DNA from: a phage
Strand: one strand, 5' to 3'
Assembly (NCBI GenBank): GCA_024672275.1
Contig: GCA_024672275.1_4536.1
Length of the DNA: 64,000 nucleotides
The notes beneath the pieces were generated by a model, which made no database searches, had not been told where the DNA came from, and worked only from the letters and a program-made list of their open reading frames with translations. The translations under genes were made by a program, and so were the position numbers. This document shows, one piece after another, positions 7,247 through 35,648 of the stretch. Within the stretch, counting starts at the first letter, position 1. Each line of letters starts with the position of its first letter.

Positions 7247-7664
7247 CTAAAATCTCCTCTTTTGTAATATTATCCAACTCTTTAAAGGATGAAATCTCGT
7301 TTAATAATCCTATTTGATCAGCTTCTAGAGGATAAGTGTTTTTATCTGTTTTTCTAGACAGAATATCTTCAACAAACTTATCAATAGCCAAAGAAGAATC
7401 ATAAAATTTTAAAAGTTGGTAATCCATAGGAGATATTTTGTCATCTCTTAGAAATATTTCTAACATGTTTTCAGGAGTGTCATGGTTTAGTTTATGTTCA
7501 CCAAAAATATTAACTTCATAAACATCTTTGCCAAACCAACGTTTCTTCTTTTCAACAGTATAGGTTTTTGCCACCAGACCATCTAAACAGTTTCTTGCCC
7601 TCTTACATGTTTGACGGTAAGAGTGGATAGCGCCTTCAACAAACTTAGCAGGAACTTGTAACAT
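7230..7664 (-). CDS. hypothetical protein
   Basis: 144-aa ORF. Confidence 0.5.
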   Translation of the reverse strand: MLQVPAKFVEGAIHSYRQTCKRARNCLDGLVAKTYTVEKKKRWFGKDVYEVNIFGEHKLNHDTPENMLEIFLRDDKISPMDYQLLKFYDSSLAIDKFVEDILSRKTDKNTYPLEADQIGLLNEISSFKELDNITKEEILDGIRL

Positions 7665-7682
7665 TATTAATCTCCTATGTTT

Positions 7683-7703
7683 AAGAAATGCCCCCGAAGG
7701 GGC
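7683..7703 (-). terminator. intergenic hairpin (gcccc-ttcg-ggggc), possible terminator/attenuator
   Basis: Perfect 5-bp GC stem with tetraloop downstream of HslV-like stop; tail only moderately U-rich. Confidence 0.4.
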
Positions 7704-7709
7704 AGTTTG

Positions 7710-8402
7710 TTAAATAGCGGTTCCTTCGAAATCCGCCACATTTACGAGATTAATATTTTCAGATTTAGAAGTCAAGTTGTTTTCTGCAACAGATTTTTCT
7801 TCAGTATCCGCCTCGTTACCTGCCACGTTACGAGGTTCTTCTTCACCGTAGGGATTACCGAATTTCAAAAGATTGATCAATTCTTCTTTGGAGAAGTTTT
7901 CTAAATCATCATCTGTTAATTCAATAATCTCGTCTTGTTCTTCAATAAATGTTTCACCACCAGAAAAAGCATCTCGCTTTTTAGCTACTTCCATAGCCTG
8001 TTCTGGTGTTGCCCCTGCATCAAGAGCAGCTAAAGCAAAATCTGACCCACTCCCTACTGCATAATATTCTTCATCAATCGGATATGCACGTGTTGGGTTG
8101 TTACCTTCGTGCAGGAAAATACGTCCGTCTGGATGAACAACAAGTGCAATAAACTCTTCATCTTCTTTATCTGGATCAGAGTGAATCATCAAACCAGGGA
8201 CAGCATCACGTGCTGCTTCGCACTGTAGATTTTGTTCAAACCATTGAAAGAAAGAAAGCACGGAGGTCAGACGACCAGCACCACCTACAAGGTAATCTCC
8301 AATTTTTCGGACCTTTTTGAAATTAATAGAATCTACACGTCCACCAAAAGTTACCTTACCGTCACTCAAAATCTTATTTTTGGTTGCAATAATTGTCGTC
8401 AC
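7710..8402 (-). CDS. HslV-like (proteasome beta-type, Ntn-hydrolase) peptidase
   Basis: N-terminal MTTIIA (Thr right after Met), FKKVRKI, VGGAGRLTSVLSF and YAVGSGSDFALAAL match HslV blocks from memory; acidic C-terminal tail. Confidence 0.65.
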   Translation of the reverse strand: MTTIIATKNKILSDGKVTFGGRVDSINFKKVRKIGDYLVGGAGRLTSVLSFFQWFEQNLQCEAARDAVPGLMIHSDPDKEDEEFIALVVHPDGRIFLHEGNNPTRAYPIDEEYYAVGSGSDFALAALDAGATPEQAMEVAKKRDAFSGGETFIEEQDEIIELTDDDLENFSKEELINLLKFGNPYGEEEPRNVAGNEADTEEKSVAENNLTSKSENINLVNVADFEGTAI

Positions 8403-8905
8403 TATTCTTCCTCCTCTGTTAATGTTTTAAGAACCGCTTTCCCGCCATTCACGTATTTGCAGATGTATTCTATCGCACGTAGCGTCTCTTTGTCAACAAA
8501 AATTTGATCAGACGTTGCGAGCGGGTTATTAAGAAGATCACTGCAATCACGAACAAGCAGTGCTTTCTTATTAAACAAATTACTTAAGAACAGTAACTTC
8601 GCCTCTTCTTCTGTTATGTGCAGAAGGCTAGGATCGGAGCCAGCTATTCCTATTATACAATCAAACAAGCTTTCTTTACTATCAGAAAGTTCTTGAAAAT
8701 GGTTTAAAAGCCAATCTTCTCCTAGACACCAACATTTAAACATTTCCAGTTTATCTCGGAGGGTCATATTCTCTAAAGTAAGAGCAATCTCTTTTTCAAT
8801 ATGGTTTACACAAATTTGACGAAATTCGTTAGGTTTTACGAGTCCCGTTTGATAGCACTCATCTATACCGCTTCTTCCGATAGCTATTGTTGCTACACCC
8901 ATCAA
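8402..8905 (-). CDS. hypothetical protein
   Basis: 167-aa ORF, start overlaps HslV-like stop. Confidence 0.5.
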   Translation of the reverse strand: MMGVATIAIGRSGIDECYQTGLVKPNEFRQICVNHIEKEIALTLENMTLRDKLEMFKCWCLGEDWLLNHFQELSDSKESLFDCIIGIAGSDPSLLHITEEEAKLLFLSNLFNKKALLVRDCSDLLNNPLATSDQIFVDKETLRAIEYICKYVNGGKAVLKTLTEEEE

Positions 8906-23479: not shown

Positions 23480-24205
23480 TTACTTGTTAATAATACCTGC
23501 GATATTAGGTTTAATGAAACCTGACCACTTCATGATCTTACCTTTATCATCAAAGAACACATACACTTTCTGTTTTTCATTATAAACAGCATGGACACCA
23601 GTGTATGCCCCTTCTGGACGATTGGCATTTCGTTCTTCAATTGCAGCGCATTCTTGTGCAATGGCTGAATCGATATCTGAAGTTTTCCAAGTTTTCAGCA
23701 ACTGTTGTTTAGTTGGATACTTGGAATCATTACTTTTCAATACCTCTTTAATAACTTTCTTTTCTGGATATTTTGAACGGATCAGAGTGTCACGAGACAT
23801 ACGCATAATACCCGCAGCCATTAGCGCCATTTGAACTGGCTCTGTAAATGTTTGTTCCAAAGCATCGAAATCGGTATACACAGTTGGAGTAAAAACATCG
23901 CCTACAGCATAGTCCAAGAAATTCAGCGTATGTTCTTCACCAAAGAACATGTAAGTAAGATAACTGGATACTACAAAAATATCCGCTGCTGCATCCAAGA
24001 GTTCTACATGATCGTTTACTTTCGCGGCTGTTTCATACTCTTTAAGCTCTTCACGAACGAACCCGATTTGGGACATAAATAACTCTTGAGTGAATTCAGG
24101 TTGTTCACCACCTCGTGCTTTGGCATTCCAATCAATTACGTGCTTTGCTGCATTTTTGAAAAATTCAGTATCGAATTTAATATCTTTAAAAAAATTCTCG
24201 ATCAT
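23480..24205 (-). CDS. hypothetical protein, possible MazG-like nucleotide pyrophosphohydrolase domain
   Basis: EFTQELFMSQIGFVREELKEYE...ELLDAAADIF weakly resembles MazG EExxE...D motifs. Confidence 0.4.
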   Translation of the reverse strand: MIENFFKDIKFDTEFFKNAAKHVIDWNAKARGGEQPEFTQELFMSQIGFVREELKEYETAAKVNDHVELLDAAADIFVVSSYLTYMFFGEEHTLNFLDYAVGDVFTPTVYTDFDALEQTFTEPVQMALMAAGIMRMSRDTLIRSKYPEKKVIKEVLKSNDSKYPTKQQLLKTWKTSDIDSAIAQECAAIEERNANRPEGAYTGVHAVYNEKQKVYVFFDDKGKIMKWSGFIKPNIAGIINK

Positions 24206-24418: not shown

Positions 24419-25048
24419 TTATGTTTTAATCTTGCCAAAATACAATACTTCAGCTTCCTGTCTTGCTGATATAGCATCTTCAATATCAGTAAATGCTCCA
24501 AGACGGATATCTTTTCCTTGATAGGATATACGAGCAATCCATCTTTTTTCTTTCTCGCTCCACACAACACCTGTTTTACCAGAAGTGTTGTTTTTCTGTT
24601 TTCGTGTATTGTATGACTGGACAGACCTTGTAGCCCAGCGACAATTTTCTTTACTGTAATCTTTTTCCGAGTCTATTCTGTCAAGAGATAAACCTTTAGG
24701 TCTATCTCCCATATCCTCAAAAAATGCAGAGAATGAATTTCTCCAAGCATCGCAGACCTTAATACCACGACCACCGTAGTATTCAAAGTGAGTATTGTTT
24801 TTGTTATAGCATCTCCCTAACATAGCTTCCCACGATTTGTATGCTCCTGTTTGTGTTGTTTGCGGTCTACACTTCGAACAATAAGAACTTTTATTCTTCC
24901 TAAGTGTTGCCATAGTTACCGTGCAAATATTACCACAATCACAAGAACAAGTAAAACGTCTTTTGCCATGCTTGTCCCTTTCAATCTCTTCTAAGACAGT
25001 ATAACAACCACATTTCTTACCTACAAGGTCTACTCTCTTGGCTCCCAT
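24419..25048 (-). CDS. HNH-AP2-type homing endonuclease-like protein
   Basis: N-terminal Cys cluster, W..MLGRCY...GGRGIKVCDAW block, C-terminal AP2-like segment; paralog of 30751..31356. Confidence 0.5.
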   Translation of the reverse strand: MGAKRVDLVGKKCGCYTVLEEIERDKHGKRRFTCSCDCGNICTVTMATLRKNKSSYCSKCRPQTTQTGAYKSWEAMLGRCYNKNNTHFEYYGGRGIKVCDAWRNSFSAFFEDMGDRPKGLSLDRIDSEKDYSKENCRWATRSVQSYNTRKQKNNTSGKTGVVWSEKEKRWIARISYQGKDIRLGAFTDIEDAISARQEAEVLYFGKIKT

Positions 25049-26157
25049 GTTCCCTCCACCATTTCCCGTAAACGGACACCTGTTGGTTTAGTAGGTATTC
25101 CACCATCAGAAAACTCTTCATACTCAATCTCAACAAATTTACCAATTAACATTTCGGCATTCTCTGCTTTACGATAATTGATAGTCTCATGAGCATCTTT
25201 ACGCATTAAGAATTCGACTACTTTACCATTTTCCATCTCACCTGTCAACACTCCATCGCCATTTTTATCACTTTTTGAATTTGTTACTTTAACTTCAAGG
25301 GTATGGCGAGGCTTACGTTTAATAACGTCATAAGAACGTTTATCAAATTCGTAAACTCCGTGAGCATTACGATATACTACACCTTCAGCTTTCTCAAGTA
25401 AAGCTTTTTCATAGAAAGCATCAAACTGTTCTTGGTTTTCAATATACTCTGTATGAACTACACAAATAAGCTCGTCAAGACCATAATCTTCAACTACTGC
25501 CTTAAGAGCAGCAAGAACATCAACACGTTTTTCAAACGGTAGATCTGGAACTGGAATATCGTATACGTAATAGTTCAGCAAAGGTGTATTTGCATTATGC
25601 TTCTTCCAGGCACTGTTAATTTGTTGTAGACTAAGGACACCTAACCCAGCAAACACTTCACCATCAAGAGGATGACCAACAACTTCACTAATAAAGTTTG
25701 GAATACCTTTCCAATGAGGTGGCAGGTTATACACTTCCCCAGCTTTTGATAAACACTCTCCTTTCATGTTAATCATAGAACGTAACCCGTTCAGTTTGTA
25801 TTGTGCATAACCAGGGAACACAACCCTTTCAGGATAATCTTTATAATCCTGGCATTTCATTGGTGTGGAAGGAACATGGTTTTCAGCTTCTTCTTTTGTT
25901 TTATAATAGCCATTCTTTAACTGTTTTGTCCATTTGGCAAAAGCTTCAAGTTCAGCTTGTTCTTCTGGTGTTGTTTCATTGGAACGACCAATGTTTTTTG
26001 CTTCTGCTGTATAAGATTTTTCTGTGATTTTTCCACCTACCCTTCCATGAGCTACAGTAACAACTGCACCATCTGTATACACTGTCCACTGTTTAAGTTT
26101 TCCTTTTGAATCTTTACCATACAGCGTTTGATTTGTTTGTTGCATTAGTCCTCCCAT
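25030..26157 (-). CDS. ATP-dependent polynucleotide ligase (DNA or RNA ligase, nucleotidyltransferase superfamily)
   Basis: Motif I YKLNGLR (KxNG), motif IV EGVVYR, later IKRK. Confidence 0.6.
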   Translation of the reverse strand: MGGLMQQTNQTLYGKDSKGKLKQWTVYTDGAVVTVAHGRVGGKITEKSYTAEAKNIGRSNETTPEEQAELEAFAKWTKQLKNGYYKTKEEAENHVPSTPMKCQDYKDYPERVVFPGYAQYKLNGLRSMINMKGECLSKAGEVYNLPPHWKGIPNFISEVVGHPLDGEVFAGLGVLSLQQINSAWKKHNANTPLLNYYVYDIPVPDLPFEKRVDVLAALKAVVEDYGLDELICVVHTEYIENQEQFDAFYEKALLEKAEGVVYRNAHGVYEFDKRSYDVIKRKPRHTLEVKVTNSKSDKNGDGVLTGEMENGKVVEFLMRKDAHETINYRKAENAEMLIGKFVEIEYEEFSDGGIPTKPTGVRLREMVEGTWEPRE

Positions 26158-26366
26158 TTAAAAACTGAAATTTTCAATCTGTTACACACTTCATCCAAAT
26201 CTGCGTCGAGTAACGTTGTAGATGTTGCCAACATATAATCAATGCTTGTGAAACCTTGCCCTTTGGCATAGTCAAGCATATCTTCATACATATCTTCAAG
26301 ATCACCGTCATCAAAAGTAGCTAGAAAATCCTCGTCCCCACTACGAACATAAAATGCAGTACTCAT
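26145..26366 (-). CDS. small highly acidic protein
   Basis: 73 aa, Asp/Glu-rich. Confidence 0.4.
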   Translation of the reverse strand: MSTAFYVRSGDEDFLATFDDGDLEDMYEDMLDYAKGQGFTSIDYMLATSTTLLDADLDEVCNRLKISVFKWED

Positions 26367-26554
26367 TCATCTTCATCCCAAGATTCAAAAACGCAGCAAT
26401 CATCGGTTTCTATAATACCAACACGTCCGCAGGTATTGCAAGTGATTTTATCACCGTAGAATAAATAATTTTTATCACCCTCTGTGTTTACAGTTATGTC
26501 ATTACTACCACAAGGGCAAGTCAGCCAACCAACAACAACGATATCTTTTTTCAT
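26363..26554 (-). CDS. small zinc-ribbon protein
   Basis: CPCG...CNTCG pairs. Confidence 0.45.
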   Translation of the reverse strand: MKKDIVVVGWLTCPCGSNDITVNTEGDKNYLFYGDKITCNTCGRVGIIETDDCCVFESWDEDE

Positions 26555-26563
26555 AATCCCTCC

Positions 26564-26890
26564 TTAAGCGTTAAGTTCGTTGTTGAGTTCGTAAATCTCT
26601 TCTTGAAGAGCATCAATCTCTTCCTCCAAACGGGAGATCTCTTCTTTTAGATATACCATTTCGGATTCTTTCTCTTCTAATTCATTTTCAAATTTTACTT
26701 TATTAGCCTCATTTTCATAATGCAGTTCAGCGTAATCATCACGCATTTGTTCAATAAGATGAATCAGAGACAAGATATAATTGTCTCCCGTTTCATCACG
26801 CCACTCTTCACCGTGACGGAGAACGGTAATTCGTCCAGTATCTTCATCTAAAATTGTCTCATATTTACGATCATCTGTATAAATCTGCAT
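26564..26890 (-). CDS. coiled-coil protein
   Basis: 108 aa, heptad-like EE-rich C-terminus. Confidence 0.45.
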   Translation of the reverse strand: MQIYTDDRKYETILDEDTGRITVLRHGEEWRDETGDNYILSLIHLIEQMRDDYAELHYENEANKVKFENELEEKESEMVYLKEEISRLEEEIDALQEEIYELNNELNA

Positions 26891-26899
26891 TATTTCTCC

Positions 26900-27304
26900 T
26901 TATTGAAGTTTAAGTGAACCACGAAGACGTTTCTCTTGCTGATCACGGATATATTGTGGAACCTCGTGAATTGAATCATTACCGTGCCTATTTTCAACAA
27001 CTAAAGAGATAACTTGATAACCAAATTCTTCAGCAAGAGCTAGATAAGGTTTAAGTTCTTTCTCTGTGGTTGAAGTATTAGAAACAATAATCTTGTTAAG
27101 ATTAGATGCCATAGCATCACGAACAATACCCTGACACCATGCGTGTGCTTTACCTACATTTTCTGGCTTCCAATCGTAAACACCACTCTCTGTGTAATGA
27201 TATTGATCTGCCTCACAGATAGGCCAATAACCTTCAGAAATAATTTCTGCTACTGTAGATTTACCAGCACCTGAAACACCACGTAAAATGATAAGTTGTT
27301 TCAT
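26900..27304 (-). CDS. P-loop polynucleotide/nucleoside kinase-like protein
   Basis: Walker A GVSGAGKST at N-terminus; 134 aa; adjacent to ligase and phosphoesterase. Confidence 0.55.
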   Translation of the reverse strand: MKQLIILRGVSGAGKSTVAEIISEGYWPICEADQYHYTESGVYDWKPENVGKAHAWCQGIVRDAMASNLNKIIVSNTSTTEKELKPYLALAEEFGYQVISLVVENRHGNDSIHEVPQYIRDQQEKRLRGSLKLQ

Positions 27305-28237
27305 TTATCCTCCAAAAAAGTTTTCGATTTTTTCACGTCGCTCTTGCTGATTTAAAGCAGCCCATTGAATCTTCGTAAAATTATTTCGAATCCATTCTAA
27401 CAAAGCGTAATATTCTTCGTCAACCATTTGTTTGGCATTTTTTGGATTATCCCAAATCAGATCCCACTTTTTATCTCCACCGCGCATAAGAAACTTCTTA
27501 GTAAGATAGTGTGGTGATTTAATTTTTAAAAGTAAGTTGAACGGATAGTTTGTTTCACGAACTACAAACCCTTCGTGTTTACAATGTTTAGACATTTCAA
27601 CAACATCTGAAAACTTAACCATTGGATGAACTTCAGGACGCTTAAATTTGGTGACAGAAGCAATTCCATCAAGAGCACCTTCAGGTAACATAAAACTTGT
27701 CCCATCAGGATTTTGAATTCTGGCACCAATTAAGTATGCACCTGGTTCTTCTTCGACAATATGCGGATCAGAAGGATCACAGATTTCAAACAGGAAAGTT
27801 GCTTTTGCACTCTCTGCCCATTTGATGAAATGTTCTATGTCATCGCACTCTGAAACAATATGATTCTTTGCAATACTTGCAAAATCTGATTCAAGGCTTC
27901 CTGTTGTCGATACAATAAGTTGACCTTTATATACACCTACAGAGGCCATAAAACCATTTACTTTACGAACCACATCTACAAGTTCATCCGCTGGTAGATC
28001 TGTGCCATTCTCAAAACGATTAAAAATCTTAGTGAAAGGCCAAATAACAACATTGTCATCAGCATCAACAACGATTCCGCGACATTCTAGAAGACGAGAA
28101 TCAATGCTCCATAAGTTATCCCAGAAAACTTTGTTCTTATACTTAAGAACAGATAGGCCAGAATACTCTCCTTCTTTATATGTTTTCTTATGAACTAAAC
28201 CTTTTTCAACCAAATCGTCGCAATTAAATTTAGTCAC
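27305..28237 (-). CDS. RNA ligase-like nucleotidyltransferase
   Basis: Motif I KVNGF, motif IV EGFVVRE, motif V LLLKIKS. Confidence 0.55.
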   Translation of the reverse strand: MTKFNCDDLVEKGLVHKKTYKEGEYSGLSVLKYKNKVFWDNLWSIDSRLLECRGIVVDADDNVVIWPFTKIFNRFENGTDLPADELVDVVRKVNGFMASVGVYKGQLIVSTTGSLESDFASIAKNHIVSECDDIEHFIKWAESAKATFLFEICDPSDPHIVEEEPGAYLIGARIQNPDGTSFMLPEGALDGIASVTKFKRPEVHPMVKFSDVVEMSKHCKHEGFVVRETNYPFNLLLKIKSPHYLTKKFLMRGGDKKWDLIWDNPKNAKQMVDEEYYALLEWIRNNFTKIQWAALNQQERREKIENFFGG

Positions 28238-28238
28238 A

Positions 28239-28790
28239 TTACTCTCCTTTGATTATTTTGTGATGGTCTACAGTCACGATATCTCGTTTACCCATCATAG
28301 AAATTATCTCATCAAAATGCAAGATTTTTCCGTGTGCATCCCAACCCACATCTAACATTTTACCATAAGCTTCATCAGGGAAAGATCCGTGGGAATGCCC
28401 GTGTAGCATGATTGATCCACGCCCTTGTTTATTCCAGGAGGCTATAGGGTAATGGCTTAAGACGAAGAACAGCTTCTGATATTTCACTTCGTCATAATAC
28501 ACCACTTCTCCATACTCTGCAAGCACTTCTCGGTGTTTGCTGTAATCATGGTTCCCAACACAGTAGGTGATATCTCCTTGGAGACGGGAAGCAATTTTAC
28601 GGGTATCTTCTTCAGTTCCGAAACAGAAGTCGCCCAAATGCCACATCTTAACACCAGGAGTAGTAGCACATTTGTTCCATGCTTCGATCAAGGCTTCTGT
28701 CATGTGGTCCATATCTTCCCACGGACGATATTCAGGAGCAAACTCTCGAATACGTTTATGCATAAAATGCAAATCGCTTGTAATAAACAT
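28239..28790 (-). CDS. calcineurin-like metallophosphoesterase
   Basis: SDLHFMH, LGDFCFG, GNHD, HGHSHG metal-binding motifs. Confidence 0.7.
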   Translation of the reverse strand: MFITSDLHFMHKRIREFAPEYRPWEDMDHMTEALIEAWNKCATTPGVKMWHLGDFCFGTEEDTRKIASRLQGDITYCVGNHDYSKHREVLAEYGEVVYYDEVKYQKLFFVLSHYPIASWNKQGRGSIMLHGHSHGSFPDEAYGKMLDVGWDAHGKILHFDEIISMMGKRDIVTVDHHKIIKGE

Positions 28791-29146
28791 TAGTATAATC
28801 CCTCGCTAAATAATTCATGGTCGTGACCATTACGCTCATGGTCGATCTGGTCCGCATTTTCCGCGATGATGTAAGCATCCGCACGACTCCACCAATTGTA
28901 ATACTGATCGATAAAGCCTTGATTATCTGGTGTGCACAAAGTTTTGTTGATTACACCTGCTTCTTTCAACACGCTTAACTGTGCATATAGTACAGGATTT
29001 GCATGTCGAACACAAGGAATAATTAACTCTTCACCATTATTCAAAATATACTTATTCGCAGCACAGACGATAACACGTTGCGCATAATGACCCTCACCAA
29101 TCCAGGTAAGAGGTTGGTAACAAATGTTGTTTTCAATACCACTCAT
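28790..29146 (-). CDS. hypothetical protein
   Basis: 118-aa ORF. Confidence 0.5.
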   Translation of the reverse strand: MSGIENNICYQPLTWIGEGHYAQRVIVCAANKYILNNGEELIIPCVRHANPVLYAQLSVLKEAGVINKTLCTPDNQGFIDQYYNWWSRADAYIIAENADQIDHERNGHDHELFSEGLY

Positions 29147-29152
29147 TGTTTC

Positions 29153-29296
29153 CTAATCCTCCTCTCTTAAGTTATCCTCGAAAAAACTAGTGTCTGGAAG
29201 TAAAAGATCATTACTTGTGTCGGGCCAATCCTCTTCTTCTCGGTAGATAAAGTAACCTTCGTCCTCTTCTTGTTCCGACCAAACCGAATGATGCAT
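29153..29296 (-). CDS. small very acidic protein (47 aa)
   Basis: Own translation MHHSVWSEQEEDEGYF...; AAGGAG RBS; not in track. Confidence 0.3.
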   Translation of the reverse strand: MHHSVWSEQEEDEGYFIYREEEDWPDTSNDLLLPDTSFFEDNLREED

Positions 29297-29305
29297 GTTT
29301 TCTCC

Positions 29306-29650
29306 TTAGTAGTGCACACGAATCATTTTAATACCATAACGCAGCATGGATTCTTTTGCAAGCATGAATTTATCCCCAGCGGCGGGATTAGAAGTATGCA
29401 CGAAAATGGTAGGTGAACCAAAGCAAGGTTTACCAAACGCCAGAAGTTCTTCCAGGTGCAGGAAAACATCATACCCATCTTGGTCTGACTCCATACCTAA
29501 ATCATTGTCAAAAGACCACTCGGTTACTCTTCGATACAGTTTAGCAGGATCATTGAGAAAGGTCATAGCTTCTTGTGACGTTTTAAACCAAATTGCGTCT
29601 TCCTGTCCATAGTCGGCTGGGTTCCGCATATCATCTATCCAAACTTTCAT
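29306..29650 (-). CDS. hypothetical protein
   Basis: 114-aa ORF. Confidence 0.5.
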   Translation of the reverse strand: MKVWIDDMRNPADYGQEDAIWFKTSQEAMTFLNDPAKLYRRVTEWSFDNDLGMESDQDGYDVFLHLEELLAFGKPCFGSPTIFVHTSNPAAGDKFMLAKESMLRYGIKMIRVHY

Positions 29651-30513: not shown

Positions 30514-30791
30514 TTTGCATTCCTCTTGTTGTTGATAACATCCATAGCAGTATATGGTTTATTAGTGCCATGATACTCCAGAATCATTGGAGAGCCTTCT
30601 TGCACTACTTCAAAGATACCATAAACAGAACTTTCAGCAAATACCATTTGCTTCGTGCCTTCATCGTTTACAACGAGAGAAAACTTCTTGCCTGTCCCGT
30701 TGAGGATCTCATATTTCTTGCCAGCAGTGAATAATCCAGAGTACCACTCATTATCTGTTGCTTTTACACACTTCAGGAAAGTCTTGATCAT
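30510..30791 (-). CDS. hypothetical protein
   Basis: 93-aa ORF. Confidence 0.45.
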   Translation of the reverse strand: MIKTFLKCVKATDNEWYSGLFTAGKKYEILNGTGKKFSLVVNDEGTKQMVFAESSVYGIFEVVQEGSPMILEYHGTNKPYTAMDVINNKRNAK

Positions 30792-31356
30792 TTCTTTTTA
30801 TCTCCTCTTTTAATCTATCTACTATACGAACATCATAGACGCCCTCTGTATACATGTCAATAACTTCTTCAAGATAAACTTTTTTAGCTTTTCTGTAAGC
30901 TTCTTTTGCTGCCTCTTCTGTAGAAAAACTTCCAAGATAGAAGCCCTTACCGAACTTACGGATGCTCGCTTGGTAGACCTTATCTCTCTTGTGATATGTA
31001 ACACCCCTATAAGATGTCGAACCCATAAGTGCAAAATTCACATACTCTGGTATAAAGACACACGTGCTTGGTGAATAAACTTTAGAATCGGAAAGAAAAT
31101 CCTTATCTAAAACTTTACCTTCCCAAGATTGACTCTCCATCCAGTTTTTGAAGTTAGAGAAGACCAACCATTCATCACAAACTTGAGCATTTTTGTATGC
31201 TGGCATCCTTGCCAACTGCTTCTCACAGTAACACCTACGCAACATATCCGTCCATCTCTCGTAATAAGGGCATGTCTTCCTTTTACCATCTTCTCCCCAA
31301 AAAGTAACTGGAACTTTTGAATCATTTATTCCTTTTCCGAACACTAGTTTTTTCAT
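30751..31356 (-). CDS. HNH-AP2-type homing endonuclease-like protein
   Basis: W..MLRRCY...VCDEW block plus YRGVTYHK...GKGFYLGSF AP2-like segment; paralog of 24419..25048. Confidence 0.5.
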   Translation of the reverse strand: MKKLVFGKGINDSKVPVTFWGEDGKRKTCPYYERWTDMLRRCYCEKQLARMPAYKNAQVCDEWLVFSNFKNWMESQSWEGKVLDKDFLSDSKVYSPSTCVFIPEYVNFALMGSTSYRGVTYHKRDKVYQASIRKFGKGFYLGSFSTEEAAKEAYRKAKKVYLEEVIDMYTEGVYDVRIVDRLKEEIKRNDQDFPEVCKSNR

Positions 31357-31868: not shown

Positions 31869-32059
31869 TTCTTTACGTACTCCATGATTGGGGTATGGTC
31901 GCCAGTAAGCGTAACACGGCTGTAGGACACATCTTGTGTCTTCAGTGTATCAATCCACTCTAAGAAGTGTTCTTTCGCTTCTGTGTAGTTCTGTGTGCCT
32001 TTAACAACGTGTATACCATCTAGAGTTACACGGAATACCATTTGAATAACGTCTTTCAT
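31865..32059 (-). CDS. hypothetical protein
   Basis: 64-aa ORF. Confidence 0.45.
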   Translation of the reverse strand: MKDVIQMVFRVTLDGIHVVKGTQNYTEAKEHFLEWIDTLKTQDVSYSRVTLTGDHTPIMEYVKK

Positions 32060-32172
32060 TTCTTACCTCCTTTGTTGTCAAAATAACTTACCAGAATATC
32101 GTGAACCACACACATGGCAAAAATCAGAACAATTGTTGTCAGGACTGGATTCTCACTAATTAGTGCTATCAT
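32056..32172 (-). CDS. small membrane protein (38 aa)
   Basis: Start set to ATG (MIALISENPV) after GGAGGTGG RBS; hydrophobic core. Confidence 0.4.
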   Translation of the reverse strand: MIALISENPVLTTIVLIFAMCVVHDILVSYFDNKGGKK

Positions 32173-32479
32173 CTTTAACCACCTCCAATTGCCTTTCGAG
32201 TTTGACTTTGTTTGAGAACTGATAATGACACAACTTACATTGCATGTCAACAATCTGATCGTGATTTAACCCTACAATTTTAACTTCCTTTGCACCATGC
32301 CACTCCAAATACTCAAAACCATCCAAATGATTACTCTTGTCCAACAGGAATGCTATCTGCTGCCATTCAATCTGAATGTCATTTAAATGATATGCTGCAC
32401 AGAAGATATCCTCATAGTAAAAGACGATCATTGTCATTGCTTCGTCCAGCACAACTACCTCTTGTCTTGTAAATCTCAT
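32156..32479 (-). CDS. hypothetical protein (first gene of leftward transcription unit)
   Basis: 107 aa, TAGGAGG RBS. Confidence 0.5.
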   Translation of the reverse strand: MRFTRQEVVVLDEAMTMIVFYYEDIFCAAYHLNDIQIEWQQIAFLLDKSNHLDGFEYLEWHGAKEVKIVGLNHDQIVDMQCKLCHYQFSNKVKLERQLEVVKDDSTN

Positions 32480-32734
32480 TCTAGCCTCCTAAACGCGTCT
32501 CTGACGCACTTTTTATATATAAGATGATAAATCACCTTACCTAGTAAGTGAACTTGCTCTACGAGCCTCTTATGAAGCTTATGTTATAGGATATACTATT
32601 GCTACCTGTTTAAGCAAGGTTTTTGCACACAGAAAATAATTTTTAATAAAACTCTTGACTTTTGTGTTCGAAGTATGCTACCCTAGAAATCTATTAACGA
32701 GCGCAGCGAGTTAAGGTTTTAGGTTGTTGATGTA

Positions 32735-32766
32735 GTACTCTGTACTCAAGTACTGTACTCCGTACT
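32735..32766. repeat. five closely spaced GTACT direct repeats
   Basis: GTACT at 32735, 32742, 32750, 32755, 32762; related (A)GTACAG motifs recur at 32838-32868 and 32940-32950. Confidence 0.7.
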
Positions 32767-32770
32767 AGAT

Positions 32771-32820
32771 TAATAATTATTAAATATTAATAATTATTAA
32801 ATATTAATAATAAATAATTA
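32771..32820. repeat. AT-only 17-bp tandem repeat (taataattattaaatat x2 plus partial), ends in palindrome ttagatctaa
   Basis: Exact duplication 32771-32787 and 32788-32804. Confidence 0.8.
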
Positions 32821-32917
32821 TTAGATCTAACAAACAGGTACAGTGTATCAGAACTGGTACGTACAGATCAACTTCTATCAATTAAAAAATAAAATAATAA
32901 ATTATTATAAATAATAC

Positions 32918-32946
32918 TTGATCTATAGATCAGTATGAAGTACAGT
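32918..32946 (+). promoter_or_regulatory. candidate rightward promoter (TTGATC-17-TACAGT) overlapping 14-bp perfect palindrome TGATCTATAGATCA
   Basis: Palindrome 32919-32932 contains two GATC sites; strong RBS and ATG at 32979 downstream. Confidence 0.4.
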
Positions 32947-32978
32947 ACGTAACATCTTAACAAGAAGGGAGGTGTGCA

Positions 32979-33164
32979 ATGATTAGTGAGAATCCGTGCA
33001 AATGGCATCATGTGCCTATTAAAGATTGTATGTCTTGTAATCCACGTTCTATTTATAACATTGCATCTTATGATGATGACAATGTGTTAGACGATGATGA
33101 AGGCTGGGAGGATTTAGATTGGACTGGTTATGAAACCAAAAAGGATAAAATTATTCCTAGTTGA
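32979..33164 (+). CDS. small Cys-containing protein
   Basis: 61 aa, GGGAGGTG RBS. Confidence 0.5.
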   Translation: MISENPCKWHHVPIKDCMSCNPRSIYNIASYDDDNVLDDDEGWEDLDWTGYETKKDKIIPS

Positions 33165-33201
33165 CTTAAGATACCCTTCGTGCTAAACTAGAAGTGAGGA
33201 G

Positions 33202-33453
33202 ATGCCGATCACTCCCCATTTGGGGTTCGAAGGATATATGCAAAATAGCTTTTATTTTAGGTGCCGTGCTTGTAATAGGCATTTGACAAACCACTCCAGA
33301 CGTGATAAAAATGGAGTCATCAAGGAATCAGACCTCTGTTCTATTTGCACAGGTTTGGCTTTTGATGATAGTCCCGAAAGGGTTTATCAGCATCAATGTA
33401 TAACAGACGTTCTCGTGTCAAACTTGGTAGAGGACGAACAACTAACAGATTAG
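33202..33453 (+). CDS. small zinc-finger protein
   Basis: CRACN...CSICTG; GAGGAG RBS. Confidence 0.5.
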   Translation: MPITPHLGFEGYMQNSFYFRCRACNRHLTNHSRRDKNGVIKESDLCSICTGLAFDDSPERVYQHQCITDVLVSNLVEDEQLTD

Positions 33454-33460
33454 GAGGAAC

Positions 33461-33710
33461 AATGTCTCTATTAGAAAAACACGTGTTTGAAGATGGTAAC
33501 GGCAATGCAGTTTTTCTTTTCCATCCAGAAAAATACACATCTGAAAACAATGGTACAACTTCTATTGTAATCACTAAAGATGTTAAAGTTATTGATTTCT
33601 TGGCTCTGATGCGAGAGATGGATCTTGAAATTAATACTTTTAACGCAGAAGCTTTGGTTGTTGCTCTTCTGGAAAAGAAAGATAGTGAAGAAGTAGCAGA
33701 ATATGCTTAA
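33461..33710 (+). CDS. hypothetical protein
   Basis: Start at ATG after TTAGGAGG RBS (MSLLEKHVFEDG). Confidence 0.5.
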
Positions 33711-33717
33711 ATAACTA

Positions 33718-33747
33718 TTGACAAACGTATCCTTCATATGTTAGGAT
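33718..33747 (+). promoter_or_regulatory. sigma70-like promoter of ACTATTGACAA family (TTGACA-18-TAGGAT)
   Basis: aactattgacaa context and TG-containing spacer shared with other promoters in window. Confidence 0.45.
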
Positions 33748-33760
33748 ACGTTCATCAAGT

Positions 33761-33950
33761 GTGGTAACAGGGTCGTTGACTTTTGTTAAGAGGGGCTTGC
33801 ACTGCGGTAGTGTTAGAGACTACTTCTTCAGAGGTTAGCTACCAAAGAGGAAAAGGAATAGTCTCGGCTCAAGAACTTTTACGCTGAAAGTTGGGCTTGG
33901 TCTTAGAGAATGTAGCGGTTCTCTACAATCGTCAGCGTCTCTGTTACCAC
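33761..33950 (+). ncRNA. candidate structured leader / small RNA preceding first tRNA
   Basis: gtggtaacag at 33761 is exact reverse complement of ctgttaccac at 33941 (10-bp closing helix); internal hairpins; between promoter and tRNA. Confidence 0.3.
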
Positions 33951-33956
33951 ATTTAT

Positions 33957-34031
33957 GGCCCTGTAGCTCAATGGGAGAGCTGTCGGCTCATAACCGATAG
34001 GTAGCTGGATCGAAACCAGCCAGGGCCACCA
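33957..34031 (+). tRNA. tRNA with CAU anticodon (Met or lysidine-Ile), CCA encoded
   Basis: Hand-folded: 7-bp acceptor ggccctg/cagggcc, anticodon loop ctCATaa, T-loop atcgaaa. Confidence 0.7.
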
Positions 34032-34033
34032 AC

Positions 34034-34108
34034 GTCTTTATGGTGTAATGGATAGCACAGGAGTCTTCTAAACTCTTAGTCAAGGTTCGATTCCTTGTAA
34101 AGACACCA
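34034..34108 (+). tRNA. tRNA-Arg (anticodon UCU)
   Basis: Acceptor gtcttta/taaagac, loop ctTCTaa, T-arm caagg-ttcgatt-ccttg, CCA encoded. Confidence 0.7.
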
Positions 34109-34304
34109 GAACATTTTAACATGAATTAGCTCAAGTGATTTGAACCCACTACTGATCATGGTGGCAGAGAATGAGGCAAGTATGTCAGACATTATAAACA
34201 AAGGCCACGGTTATATTAGAAGACATAAATGCTCGAAGAGCACCGTTCGTTGAGAACGGTGGTTGGTGGAGTCACCATTCATGGTAAAATGTTTTAAAAA
34301 ACTA

Positions 34305-34334
34305 TTGACAACTAACATTATTTTATGTTAGATT
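34305..34334 (+). promoter_or_regulatory. sigma70-like promoter (TTGACA-18-TAGATT), ACTATTGACAA family
   Basis: About 8 nt upstream of tRNA-Ser 5' end. Confidence 0.5.
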
Positions 34335-34342
34335 ATAAGTAT

Positions 34343-34433
34343 GGAAGGGCAAATCGACGTGGCGACGAAAACGGTCTTGAAAACCGCCGAGCTTGAAAGA
34401 GCCTTGGGAGTTCGACTCTCCCTCCTTCCGCCA
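34343..34433 (+). tRNA. tRNA-Ser (anticodon UGA), class II
   Basis: Long variable arm, loop ctTGAaa, T-arm gggag-ttcgact-ctccc, discriminator G, CCA encoded. Confidence 0.7.
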
Positions 34434-34437
34434 GATT

Positions 34438-34523
34438 GGTAGATTGGTGAAATGGTAGCCACGACAGTTTGCTAAACTGTAGTCGGAAACGGCGTGTAGG
34501 TTCGAGTCCTACATCTACCGCCA
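34438..34523 (+). tRNA. tRNA-Ser (anticodon GCU), class II
   Basis: Acceptor ggtagat/atctacc, stem acagt/actgt, loop ttGCTaa, long variable arm, discriminator G. Confidence 0.7.
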
Positions 34524-34653
34524 AGTTCTTTTTAATATAGCTTACTTTAATAGAGTAAACTTTCGGCAGATGGCCCCCACCATCTTACCGATACCTCATA
34601 GTTAGTGGTGCGAACACTGGCTATTTTAAAAAGAATTTAAATATTAGTATTTA

Positions 34654-34741
34654 GGTGAGTTAATTCCGTAGGGGTAGCGGGGCAGACTGTAAATCTGTTA
34701 TCATTGCGATTCGGGTGGTTCGACTCCATCACTCACCACCA
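34654..34741 (+). tRNA. tRNA-Tyr (anticodon GUA), class II
   Basis: Acceptor ggtgagt/actcacc, loop ctGTAaa, long variable arm, CCA encoded. Confidence 0.65.
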
Positions 34742-34747
34742 AATTAA

Positions 34748-34833
34748 GATGAGTTGGCTGAACGGTTTAAGCGGCGGACTGTTAATCCGTGTTCGAAAGA
34801 ACGATATAGGTTCAAATCCTATACTCATCGCCA
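34748..34833 (+). tRNA. unusual tRNA: Asn-type anticodon arm (GUU) in a long-variable-arm (class II-like) scaffold, discriminator G
   Basis: 86 nt with CCA; stem gcgga/tccgt, loop ctGTTaa; 15-nt variable region gttc-gaaa-gaac. Confidence 0.55.
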
Positions 34834-34840
34834 GAATTAT

Positions 34841-34917
34841 GGACTTGTAGAGTTAAGGTAAACCCCCAGTCGCCAAGAGGCTTCTGGAATTGCAGGTATC
34901 GAATCCTGCCGAGTCCC
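34841..34917 (+). pseudogene. degenerate tRNA-like element
   Basis: Acceptor ggacttg/cgagtcc and T-arm-like gcagg...cctgc (8-nt loop) but no regular anticodon arm; no CCA. Confidence 0.3.
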
Positions 34918-34923
34918 AGCTTT

Positions 34924-34998
34924 GCTCCTATAGTATAATGGCTATTACAACGGTTTTGTAATCCGTGGATCTCTGTTCGATTCAGAGTGGGAGCACCA
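34924..34998 (+). tRNA. tRNA-Thr (anticodon UGU)
   Basis: Acceptor gctccta/tgggagc with one GU, D-arm gtataatggctattac, loop ttTGTaa, T-arm ctctg-ttcgatt-cagag, CCA. Confidence 0.6.
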
Positions 34999-35271
34999 AT
35001 ACAACATTAAGGGCACTGTGATTGATCGTCGTATCCTGTGCACAAGGTCTGCTCGAAAGACAGTGTTCTTAGTATTGTGTTGATCACACAAAGAGTTACC
35101 TGAAACTTGACCGGAGTAGGGTTGGATGGGGCAAAAGAAGAAGCGGCTCTCCCATCGACAGCAACGAAGAATAATATTTGACTTTGGTTTTGTATTATTT
35201 TAAGTTAGCTTACCGAACGTAGGGCTAGTCACCCAATGGGATACTCGTCACTGTCCCACTCAATAAAACTA

Positions 35272-35301
35272 TTGACAACCAATAGTAAAATGTAGTATAG
35301 T
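35272..35301 (+). promoter_or_regulatory. sigma70-like promoter (TTGACA-18-TATAGT), ACTATTGACAA family
   Basis: About 11 nt upstream of tRNA-Gly. Confidence 0.55.
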
Positions 35302-35312
35302 AAAGATGTAGG

Positions 35313-35386
35313 GCGTTCTTGGTGTAGCGGTAGCATTCCGTCCTTCCAAGTCGGCGGCACGAGTTCGATCCTCGTAGAACGCTCCA
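35313..35386 (+). tRNA. tRNA-Gly (anticodon UCC)
   Basis: Acceptor gcgttct/agaacgc, loop ctTCCaa, T-arm acgag-ttcgatc-ctcgt, discriminator U, CCA. Confidence 0.65.
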
Positions 35387-35484
35387 AATTATTTAATAAA
35401 GGGTTGCCAGAAAACTTTCTCTTTTACTCATGGTTTTCTCCTTCTCTCACACCTCTTCTGGTTGCCCTTCATTAAATGATTTAT

Positions 35485-35560
35485 TGGTTTGTAGTGTAGT
35501 CCGGTAGCACACGACACTTTGACTGTCGTAGGTTTGGTTCAAATCCAGACAGACCAGCCA
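35485..35560 (+). tRNA. tRNA-Gln (anticodon UUG)
   Basis: U1-A72 start, stem cgaca/tgtcg, loop ctTTGac, discriminator G, CCA. Confidence 0.7.
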
Positions 35561-35565
35561 TATAA

Positions 35566-35642
35566 CGGAATTTAGCTCAGTTTGGTAGAGCATACGCTTT
35601 GGGAGCGTAGGGTCGCAGGTTCGAATCCTGCAATTCCGACCA
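35566..35642 (+). tRNA. tRNA-Pro (anticodon UGG)
   Basis: C1-G72, D-arm gctcagtttggtagagc, stem tacgc/gcgta, loop ttTGGga, T-arm gcagg-ttcgaat-cctgc, CCA. Confidence 0.75.
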
Positions 35643-35648
35643 ATCAAA

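Follow-up and report, generated by a model that had tools for sequence, protein, structure and literature searches.

A three-gene phage cassette predicted to heal and seal RNA ends in a phAPEC8-like genome

Three adjacent genes on the minus strand of a phage-derived stretch of 64,000 nucleotides (nt; contig GCA_024672275.1_4536.1 of GenBank assembly GCA_024672275.1, "the window" in the following) probably encode a phage heal-and-seal RNA repair module that consists of a kinase, a phosphoesterase and an Rnl1-type ligase. The reading as an RNA end-healing and sealing system, already put forward in an earlier note on this DNA, is well supported because the family identities of the three proteins, the linkage of their genes and the genomic context all agree with it. 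In the order of transcription, the cassette comprises the genes for a metallophosphoesterase (MPE; positions 28239-28790, 183 amino acids (aa)), a ligase (LIG; 27305-28237, 310 aa, GTG start) and a P-loop kinase (KIN; 26900-27304, 134 aa), with junctions of 1 nt between MPE and LIG and 0 nt between LIG and KIN, and with Shine-Dalgarno-like AGGAG/GGAGG sequences upstream of all three starts. The neighbouring genes are equally tightly packed (junctions of -13 to +10 nt). The sequence motifs quoted in the earlier note are all present according to a script-based check of their positions, namely GVSGAGKST at residues 9-17 of the kinase, and KVNGF at residue 92, EGFVV at residue 222 and LLKIK at residue 236 of the ligase.

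The three predicted enzymes

By sequence and by its modelled fold, the ligase is assigned to the Rnl1-type ATP-dependent RNA ligases of the T4 Rnl1/Trl1 clade and not to the DNA ligases. The Pfam family RNA_lig_T4_1 matches residues 51-244 and is covered over the whole model (E 4.4e-15; 56.6 bits at a cut-off of 28.3). Profiles of homologues were needed for comparisons with solved structures, because single-sequence searches of the PDB were uninformative; the ligase had no match, and the matches of the kinase were confined to P-loop noise. When the ligase profile (A1; 30 homologues, identities of 49-85%) was compared to all PDB sequences, the sole match was T4 Rnl1 (2c5u, 5.6e-11). In a Foldseek search with the AlphaFold2 model (pLDDT, i.e. 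predicted local distance difference test, 91.4), ranks 1-10 were occupied by Trl1 ligase domains and T4 Rnl1 (E 1.5e-13 to 1.3e-11), with the fungal Trl1 domains 9qw7, 6n0v and 8rbj on top (E ~1e-13), marginally above T4 Rnl1. Archaeal ligases of the Rnl3 type (~1e-9) followed, then Naegleria (Rnl5-type) ligase and T4 Rnl2 (~1e-6 to 1e-5), and DNA ligases ranked far lower (E >= 2e-5). The earlier note had considered that the protein might resemble DNA ligases only, and the opposite was found, both by profile and by fold.

The nucleotidyltransferase motifs of the ligase are complete, with the Lys nucleophile in motif I (KxNG), EG in motif IV, KxK in motif V, and the Rnl1-specific upstream Arg and Lys/Phe positions. 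R53, K70, K92, N94, G95, E151, E222, G223, K238 and K240 are invariant among the 30 homologues, i.e. down to 49% identity, and F72 is nearly invariant. As essential residues of T4 Rnl1 we take those known from mutagenesis, which are R54, K75, F77, K99, D101, G102, K119, E159, E227, G228, K240 and K242. In the alignment, R53/K70/F72/K92/N94/G95 of the window ligase correspond to R54/K75/F77/K99/D101/G102, and E151/E222/G223/K238/K240 to E159/E227/G228/K240/K242, which means that 11 of the 12 functional residues are matched, 10 of them identically and D101 by an Asn. The protein thus belongs to the clade, but orthology to T4 Rnl1 was considered and rejected, because the score for the T4 RnlA equivalog family (NCBIfam TIGR02308) is far below the cut-off (24.7 versus 242.25 bits), and because with ~65 residues after motif V the C-terminal tRNA-specificity domain of T4 Rnl1 (~120 aa) remains unmatched. 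In total, the window ligase has 310 aa and T4 Rnl1 374 aa.

The kinase is a standalone P-loop protein that is predicted to be a polynucleotide 5'-OH kinase rather than a deoxynucleoside monophosphate (dNMP) kinase. It is recognized by Pfam AAA_33 (2.7e-10) and matches phrog_2071 and phrog_505, the latter being annotated as 'polynucleotide kinase' (8e-8). Among PDB sequences, the best match of the kinase profile (A2; 33 homologues) was Pnkp1 (4xrp, 5.4e-7), followed by a kinase from Rhizopus azygosporus (9d8a, 3.5e-5), which we take to be the Mucorales Trl1-type kinase, by 9drz (6.9e-5), and by T4 Pnk (1ly1, 1.2e-4) and CthPnk (4gp7, 3.8e-4), both of which were aligned over the full length. Thymidylate and adenylate kinases were matched at the P-loop only (E > 0.04), and likewise the PHROG family of dNMP kinases covers only residues 1-35 with the P-loop, so the dNMP kinase identity that the earlier note had named as a risk is disfavoured by the profile. 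G12, G14, K15, D33, N76, T77 and R106 are invariant in the 33 homologues, the P-loop fits the pattern GxxGxGK[ST], and D33 is aligned with the catalytic Asp35 of T4 Pnk.

The third protein was described in the earlier note as a calcineurin-like phosphoesterase, and this is confirmed by the two-metal superfamily motifs (DxH, GD, GNH[DE], H, GH and GxH) and by the alpha/beta sandwich fold of the model (pLDDT 95.3). The Pfam family Metallophos_2 scores just under its cut-off (3.8e-5; 24.2 versus 27 bits), and the metal-binding and catalytic residues D6, H8, D54, N80, H81, H113, H132 and H134 are invariant in 36 homologues. With its intact two-metal site, the protein is a phosphoesterase of the type of Aquifex aq_1665 (COG4186). 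A detached lambda-phosphatase-type Pnkp domain was considered as well and rejected, because motif II is devoid of the Asp-Arg of GDxxDR; the aq_1665/COG4186-type proteins constitute a distinct clade. We predict that the enzyme heals 2',3'-cyclic-phosphate or 3'-phosphate ends, and this prediction derives only from the gene linkage and from the analogy to CthPnkp and lambda phosphatase, two enzymes of metallophosphoesterase fold for which 2',3'-cyclic phosphodiesterase activity is known (PMC2190708).

Linkage and fusion in other phages

The three genes cluster more than chance alone would produce. This was analyzed with 80 viral-metagenome loci from IMG/VR (L002-L081) that were seeded by relatives of the ligase (39-87% identity) and scanned with the three family profiles. 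All three genes were found within 8 kb in 60 of these loci, 13 more contained kinase and ligase, and a phosphoesterase was near the ligase in 65. After dereplication by clustering of the ligases at 70% identity, 41 lineages remained, and the trio was present in 33 of them, in the orders MPE-LIG-KIN, KIN-LIG-MPE and LIG-MPE-KIN, and in one divergent arrangement. The gap between kinase and ligase genes has a median of 11 nt.

In 11 loci of two lineages (L050, L051, L054, L056-L059, L062, L064, L065, L067), the kinase is N-terminally fused to the ligase in one open reading frame (ORF) of ~430 codons (e.g. L054, positions 7536-8834). This fusion is the strongest single argument for a kinase that acts on the substrate of the ligase. 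Within the fetched flanks of the fusion loci, no aq_1665-type phosphoesterase was found. An ORF for a 128-aa protein resembling Pol-beta-type nucleotidyltransferases (GS...DIDI motif) recurs ~3-4 kb downstream of the fusions.

In the reverse direction the linkage is weaker, as seen in 80 loci that were seeded by the phosphoesterase (L089-L168), 36 of which contain a ligase nearby. Among the ligase-less loci of this set, a different P-loop kinase of 154 aa adjoins the phosphoesterase in eight cases, which we count in favour of RNA repair, and a 155-aa Cys-phosphatase protein with an HCxAGxxRS motif adjoins it in 11 (e.g. L143 573-1040 and L144 2710-3177).

In cellular genomes, a scan of one genome per bacterial or archaeal species with narrow patterns, by which absence is only weak evidence, gave six hits. 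As these were all on metagenome-assembled or very short contigs, the clade appears to be phage-borne.

Within 4 kb of the ligase in the 80 ligase-seeded loci, neighbour families were assigned by eye from the sequences. Most frequent are ATP-dependent DNA ligases (41 loci), proteins resembling phosphoribosyl pyrophosphate (PRPP) synthetase (33) and NadV-like phosphoribosyltransferases (24), followed by HD-domain proteins (19), deoxycytidine monophosphate deaminases (14), Sir2 (11) and Macro proteins (8). These recurrent neighbours point to a link with the salvage of nicotinamide adenine dinucleotide (NAD) and with ADP-ribose processing.

Proposed mechanism and rival explanations

How could the three proteins work together? 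Cleavage by host ribotoxins, e.g. by anticodon nucleases or other metal-independent RNases, leaves one fragment with a 2',3'-cyclic phosphate and the other with a 5'-OH. The kinase would then move a phosphate from a nucleoside triphosphate onto the 5'-OH end, and the two-metal phosphoesterase would open and remove the 2',3'-cyclic phosphate or 3'-phosphate to yield a 3'-OH, possibly aided in this phage lineage by a nearby cREC protein. Finally, the ligase, adenylylated on Lys92, would activate the 5'-phosphate and seal the break. We infer RNA, and probably tRNA, as the substrate, as well as the exact chemistry of the phosphoesterase step and a role in counter-defence. It may even be that the aq_1665/COG4186-type phosphoesterases represent a separate class of RNA 3'-end-healing enzymes that differs from the DxDxT (HAD-type) domain in T4 Pnkp, from the lambda-phosphatase-type domain of bacterial Pnkp and from the 2H domain of Trl1, and that they act within a widespread phage-borne module with a minimal kinase and a short Rnl1 ligase, perhaps as a physical complex, to counter RNA-cleaving defences of the host; we advance this extended proposal tentatively, as its chances appear somewhat below even.

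In favour of RNA repair, the fold and family identities of the proteins, their intact catalytic sites and the tight packing of the genes come together with the conserved linkage of the trio and the kinase-ligase fusions, and no terminator-like site was found inside the three genes in our scan. Moreover, a similar prediction has been made independently and in silico for rV5-like phages (PMC9503650). Several points weigh against this interpretation. In the ligase, the position of T4 Rnl1 Lys119 is occupied by a Thr, and the helical region that follows the catalytic domain is short in comparison to the ~120 aa of T4 Rnl1. In the kinase, Arg38 of T4 Pnk, which contacts the substrate phosphate, is replaced by the nearly invariant His36, and R106 aligns with T4 R122, four residues from R126, the lid Arg in contact with the nucleoside triphosphate, in a loop with a 7-residue alignment gap. 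As to the phosphoesterase, the Arg that is missing in its motif II is typical of phosphomonoesterases, in structure the protein is closest, after aq_1665, to LpxH, YfcE, MJ0936, Mre11 and nuclease MPE, and its clade is without a characterised member. Half of the phosphoesterase-seeded loci (40 of 80) have neither partner within 8 kb, and the cassette is surrounded by genes of DNA replication and repair. Lastly, a literature search found no biochemical or genetic data on any member of the three protein clades, and no functional studies on COG4186, 1XM7 or a Phapecoctavirus/phAPEC8 RNA ligase, with Burroughs & Aravind 2016 (NAR 44:8525) lying outside that search.

What alternatives have to be considered? 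A function in DNA end processing would fit the surroundings, as the leftward block with the cassette contains genes for DNA ligase, exonucleases, an exonuclease subunit of DNA polymerase and ribonucleotide reductase. When phage DNA is replicated or recombined, or when its nicks are repaired, kinase and phosphoesterase could in principle clean 5'-OH/3'-phosphate DNA ends so that the DNA ligase encoded nearby can join them, leaving a side role to the RNA-ligase-like protein. T4 Pnkp is active on DNA as well as on RNA, the phosphoesterase has structural neighbours such as Mre11, SbcD, nuclease MPE and the exonuclease PolD DP1, and the DNA ligase gene is near the RNA ligase gene in about half of the loci (41 of 80, see above). 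However, the kinase fusions are always with the Rnl1-type ligase and never with a DNA ligase, the DNA ligase gene is farther away and variably placed, whereas kinase and RNA ligase genes are separated by a median of 11 nt, and the closest relatives of the ligase are all tRNA/RNA ligases, which makes DNA end processing unlikely.

It is quite unlikely that the three proteins have separate jobs, i.e. that the phosphoesterase degrades signals derived from nucleotides or NAD/ADP-ribose, that the kinase is a small-molecule nucleotide kinase, and that the ligase works by itself or helps to attach tail fibres, as T4 gp63 does. Such an arrangement would be compatible with the half of the phosphoesterase-seeded loci that lack a ligase, with the NadV-like, PRPP-synthetase-like, Sir2, Macro and HD genes that recur nearby in other phages, and with the view of Iyer et al., who use the term 'nucleotide kinase' for the kinase and assign the neighbourhood to an NAD/ADP-ribose network (PMC9503650). 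It is nevertheless at variance with a trio linkage that survives changes of gene order in 33 of 41 lineages, with the existence of kinase-ligase fusions, and with the end-to-end match of the kinase profile to T4 Pnk and CthPnk, which includes the catalytic Asp, i.e. the residue responsible for activation of the polynucleotide 5'-OH. Several database annotations do read 'tail fiber protein attachment catalyst', but homology to T4 gp63 is the only origin of this label, and the ligase gene resides in an early/replication block and not in a structural one. Another possibility, which we regard as quite improbable, is a Trl1-like route, in which cREC or the phosphoesterase yields 3'-OH/2'-phosphate ends, the ligase needs the 2'-phosphate, and the 2'-phosphate at the junction is removed later. 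The fungal Trl1 domains at the top of the fold matches and the nearby cREC gene would fit, as would the Sir2 gene in the same block of an rV5-like locus (L004), for which a KptA-like 2'-phosphotransferase action has been proposed by Iyer et al. (PMC9503650). Yet neither Sir2 nor KptA is encoded in the repair block of the window, most lineages with the trio are devoid of cREC and Sir2, and a phosphate-removing metallophosphoesterase makes the simpler T4-type route sufficient.

Relation to known systems and genomic setting

With the preferred RNA heal-and-seal reading, the cassette can be compared to the known repair systems. T4 Pnkp and Rnl1, which counter the anticodon nuclease PrrC, are likewise phage-encoded and combine 5'-kinase, 3'-end healing and sealing activities as predicted here; the Rnl1-family ligase residues are kept, and the kinases belong to the same P-loop polynucleotide kinase clade with an equivalent of D35. 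The earlier note had correctly pointed out that the T4 kinase is fused to a DxDxT (HAD-type) phosphatase domain, whereas the window contains a standalone kinase and a two-metal phosphoesterase. T4 Rnl1 differs also in the region after the catalytic domain, which is about twice as long as in the window ligase, and T4 pseT and gene 63 are non-contiguous, unlike the three contiguous genes of the window.

The bacterial Pnkp/Hen1 system of Clostridium thermocellum shares with the cassette a P-loop polynucleotide kinase, a phosphatase of metallophosphoesterase fold and an ATP-dependent ligase, but there the order kinase-phosphatase-ligase is realized in one polypeptide, whereas the window has three ORFs with stop codons between them. 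The comparison with a split bacterial Pnkp that was made in the earlier note holds at the superfamily level only, because ligase and phosphoesterase belong to other subfamilies (Rnl1-type and aq_1665-type, respectively), and as an evolutionary statement it is rejected by these assignments. In the sister phage ESCO13, no Hen1 is annotated over 20 kb to each side of the cassette, a statement that refers to annotations and not to a dedicated search. The Pnkp1-Rnl-Hen1 system of Capnocytophaga gingivalis contains the best solved match of the window kinase (4xrp) and shows that, in RNA repair, a ligase can be a subunit of its own that cooperates with a kinase-phosphatase. In that system, however, kinase and T4-type phosphatase are fused in Pnkp1, which works with Hen1 in a heterohexamer, whereas the phosphatase of the window is a separate metallophosphoesterase. 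A comparison of Pnkp1-Rnl-Hen1 with Pnkp-Hen1 documents that phosphatase and ligase modules have been swapped between RNA repair systems (PMC4411300). Fungal and plant Trl1 is similar in its ligase domain, the top fold match, and in its kinase domain, which ranks second among the matches of the kinase profile (9d8a), but it unites three functions in one protein, including a 2H cyclic phosphodiesterase, needs a junction 2'-phosphate and depends on a separate Tpt1 for the removal of this phosphate.

In an in silico study of 2022 (PMC9503650, section 3.7.3), Iyer, Burroughs, Anantharaman and Aravind described a similar neighbourhood of rV5/Mydo-type phages and listed for phage V5 and relatives a T4-like tRNA ligase, cREC, a nucleotide kinase, MazG and an occasional calcineurin-like phosphoesterase. 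The gene families are the same, including the MazG pyrophosphatase, but that neighbourhood is centred on Sir2, which is absent from the window block, and the phosphoesterase, which adjoins the ligase in the window, is not just occasional in the ligase-seeded sample (65 of 80 loci). In GenBank records of sister phages, the three genes are annotated as 'putative RNA ligase', 'phosphoesterase' and 'putative polynucleotide kinase', respectively. As the concept, the annotations and a similar neighbourhood are already published, the discovery is incremental. Its relevance lies in the conservation of the cassette in at least 33 divergent phage lineages and its presence in therapeutically relevant E. 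coli phages. Bacterial immunity by cleavage of tRNA or other RNA is increasingly recognised, with PrrC, RloC, PARIS, retron-linked nucleases, HEPN toxins and Cas13 as examples, and, to our knowledge, experimental tests of phage counter-measures beyond phage tRNAs are almost confined to T4. The cassette would offer an experimental handle on RNA repair as counter-defence and could give a function to a phosphoesterase clade for which a crystal structure (1xm7) has existed since 2004.

Judged by nucleotide identity, the source is a Phapecoctavirus, i.e. it belongs to the phAPEC8 group of E. coli phages. Over the region 26500-29200, the identity amounts to 99.5% with Escherichia phage Mt1B1_P17 and, among the matches listed, to at least 99% with at least 20 further records of phAPEC8-like myoviruses, which have genomes of ~150 kb and belong to the genus Phapecoctavirus in the Stephanstirmvirinae. 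To the left of 32-33 kb, a long minus-strand block contains replication and nucleotide-metabolism genes. At ~32000-33900, the sign of the GC skew and the gene orientation switch, marking a divergent intergenic region, and to the right of it the tRNA cluster and the structural genes are on the plus strand. A promoter scan gave 38 promoter-like sites where 34.7 were expected, which is not above chance, and transcription units are thus not definable from it. One weak terminator-like site lies in the next gene downstream of the cassette (26788-26766), and the strongest one on the minus strand far downstream (22511-22488).

The second KxNG ligase that had been noticed near the cassette is encoded by an ORF at 25030-26157 in the minus-strand block, at a distance of 743 nt to the gene for the kinase. 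It was identified as an ATP-dependent DNA ligase (DNA_ligase_A_M; phrog_114, 1e-74; KLNG at residue 121). A MazG-like pyrophosphatase gene is found by family match at 23480-24205. The slot between the kinase and DNA ligase genes (26145-26890, minus) is filled by three small unrelated ORFs for a 108-aa coiled-coil, a 63-aa Cys-rich and a 73-aa protein. It is this slot that contains Sir2 in rV5-like relatives (L004 9724-10500, plus), and a Sir2 gene was searched for in the window block and found to be absent. In L004, whose ligase is 80% identical, the order is MPE, HNH endonuclease, LIG, cREC, KIN, Sir2, DNA ligase.

The cREC protein of the window (29306-29650, minus, 114 aa; Pfam cREC_REC PF20274, 7.2e-17, 62.3 bits at a cut-off of 27) belongs to a family with predicted cyclic-phosphate processing and reported linkage to RNA ligases (PMC7824862, PMC9503650). 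Among the fetched loci, cREC occurs only in the 10 metagenomic loci with the most similar ligases (~49-87% identity) and in two sister-phage records, and it is probably a lineage-specific accessory. Directly upstream of the cassette, a 118-aa ORF (28790-29146, minus; phrog_839), whose stop overlaps the metallophosphoesterase start by 1 nt, was considered as a fourth component. It encodes a domain of ~95 aa with invariant R47, H48, G77, F78, R88 and E115 and a nearly invariant Q76, which was found in 294 proteins of a representative library (E <= 1e-3), often at the C-terminus of longer proteins. Searches with Pfam (34 members) and with a profile against the PDB gave no match that would indicate a function, and its membership is left uncertain because no more than three other viral loci (L002, L003, L068) contain it near the ligase.

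The repair block is flanked by two HNH homing-endonuclease ORFs (24419-25048 and 30751-31356, both minus; phrog_374, 1e-72, and phrog_953, 8e-77), neither of which is present at the respective position in the phages Schickermooser and ESCO13. An HNH-related ORF also lies directly upstream of the RNA ligase gene in L004 (7369-8010).

The earlier note had also mentioned a phage tRNA set, and indeed 10 tRNAs were detected by ARAGORN and 11 by Rfam on the plus strand at 33957-35879. The eleventh (34654-34738, plus; Rfam 39 bits at a cut-off of 29) was missed by ARAGORN and is unannotated at the matching place in ESCO13; its anticodon loop CUGUAAA gives the anticodon GUA (Tyr), and its variable arm is long. 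The adjoining tRNA at 34748-34833 (plus, 86 nt) is called Asn (anticodon GUU) and has a long variable arm as well, which is unusual for tRNA-Asn. The resemblance of its acceptor stem GAUGAGU to the GGUGAGU of the Tyr-like tRNA suggests a duplicated type-II tRNA with an altered anticodon.

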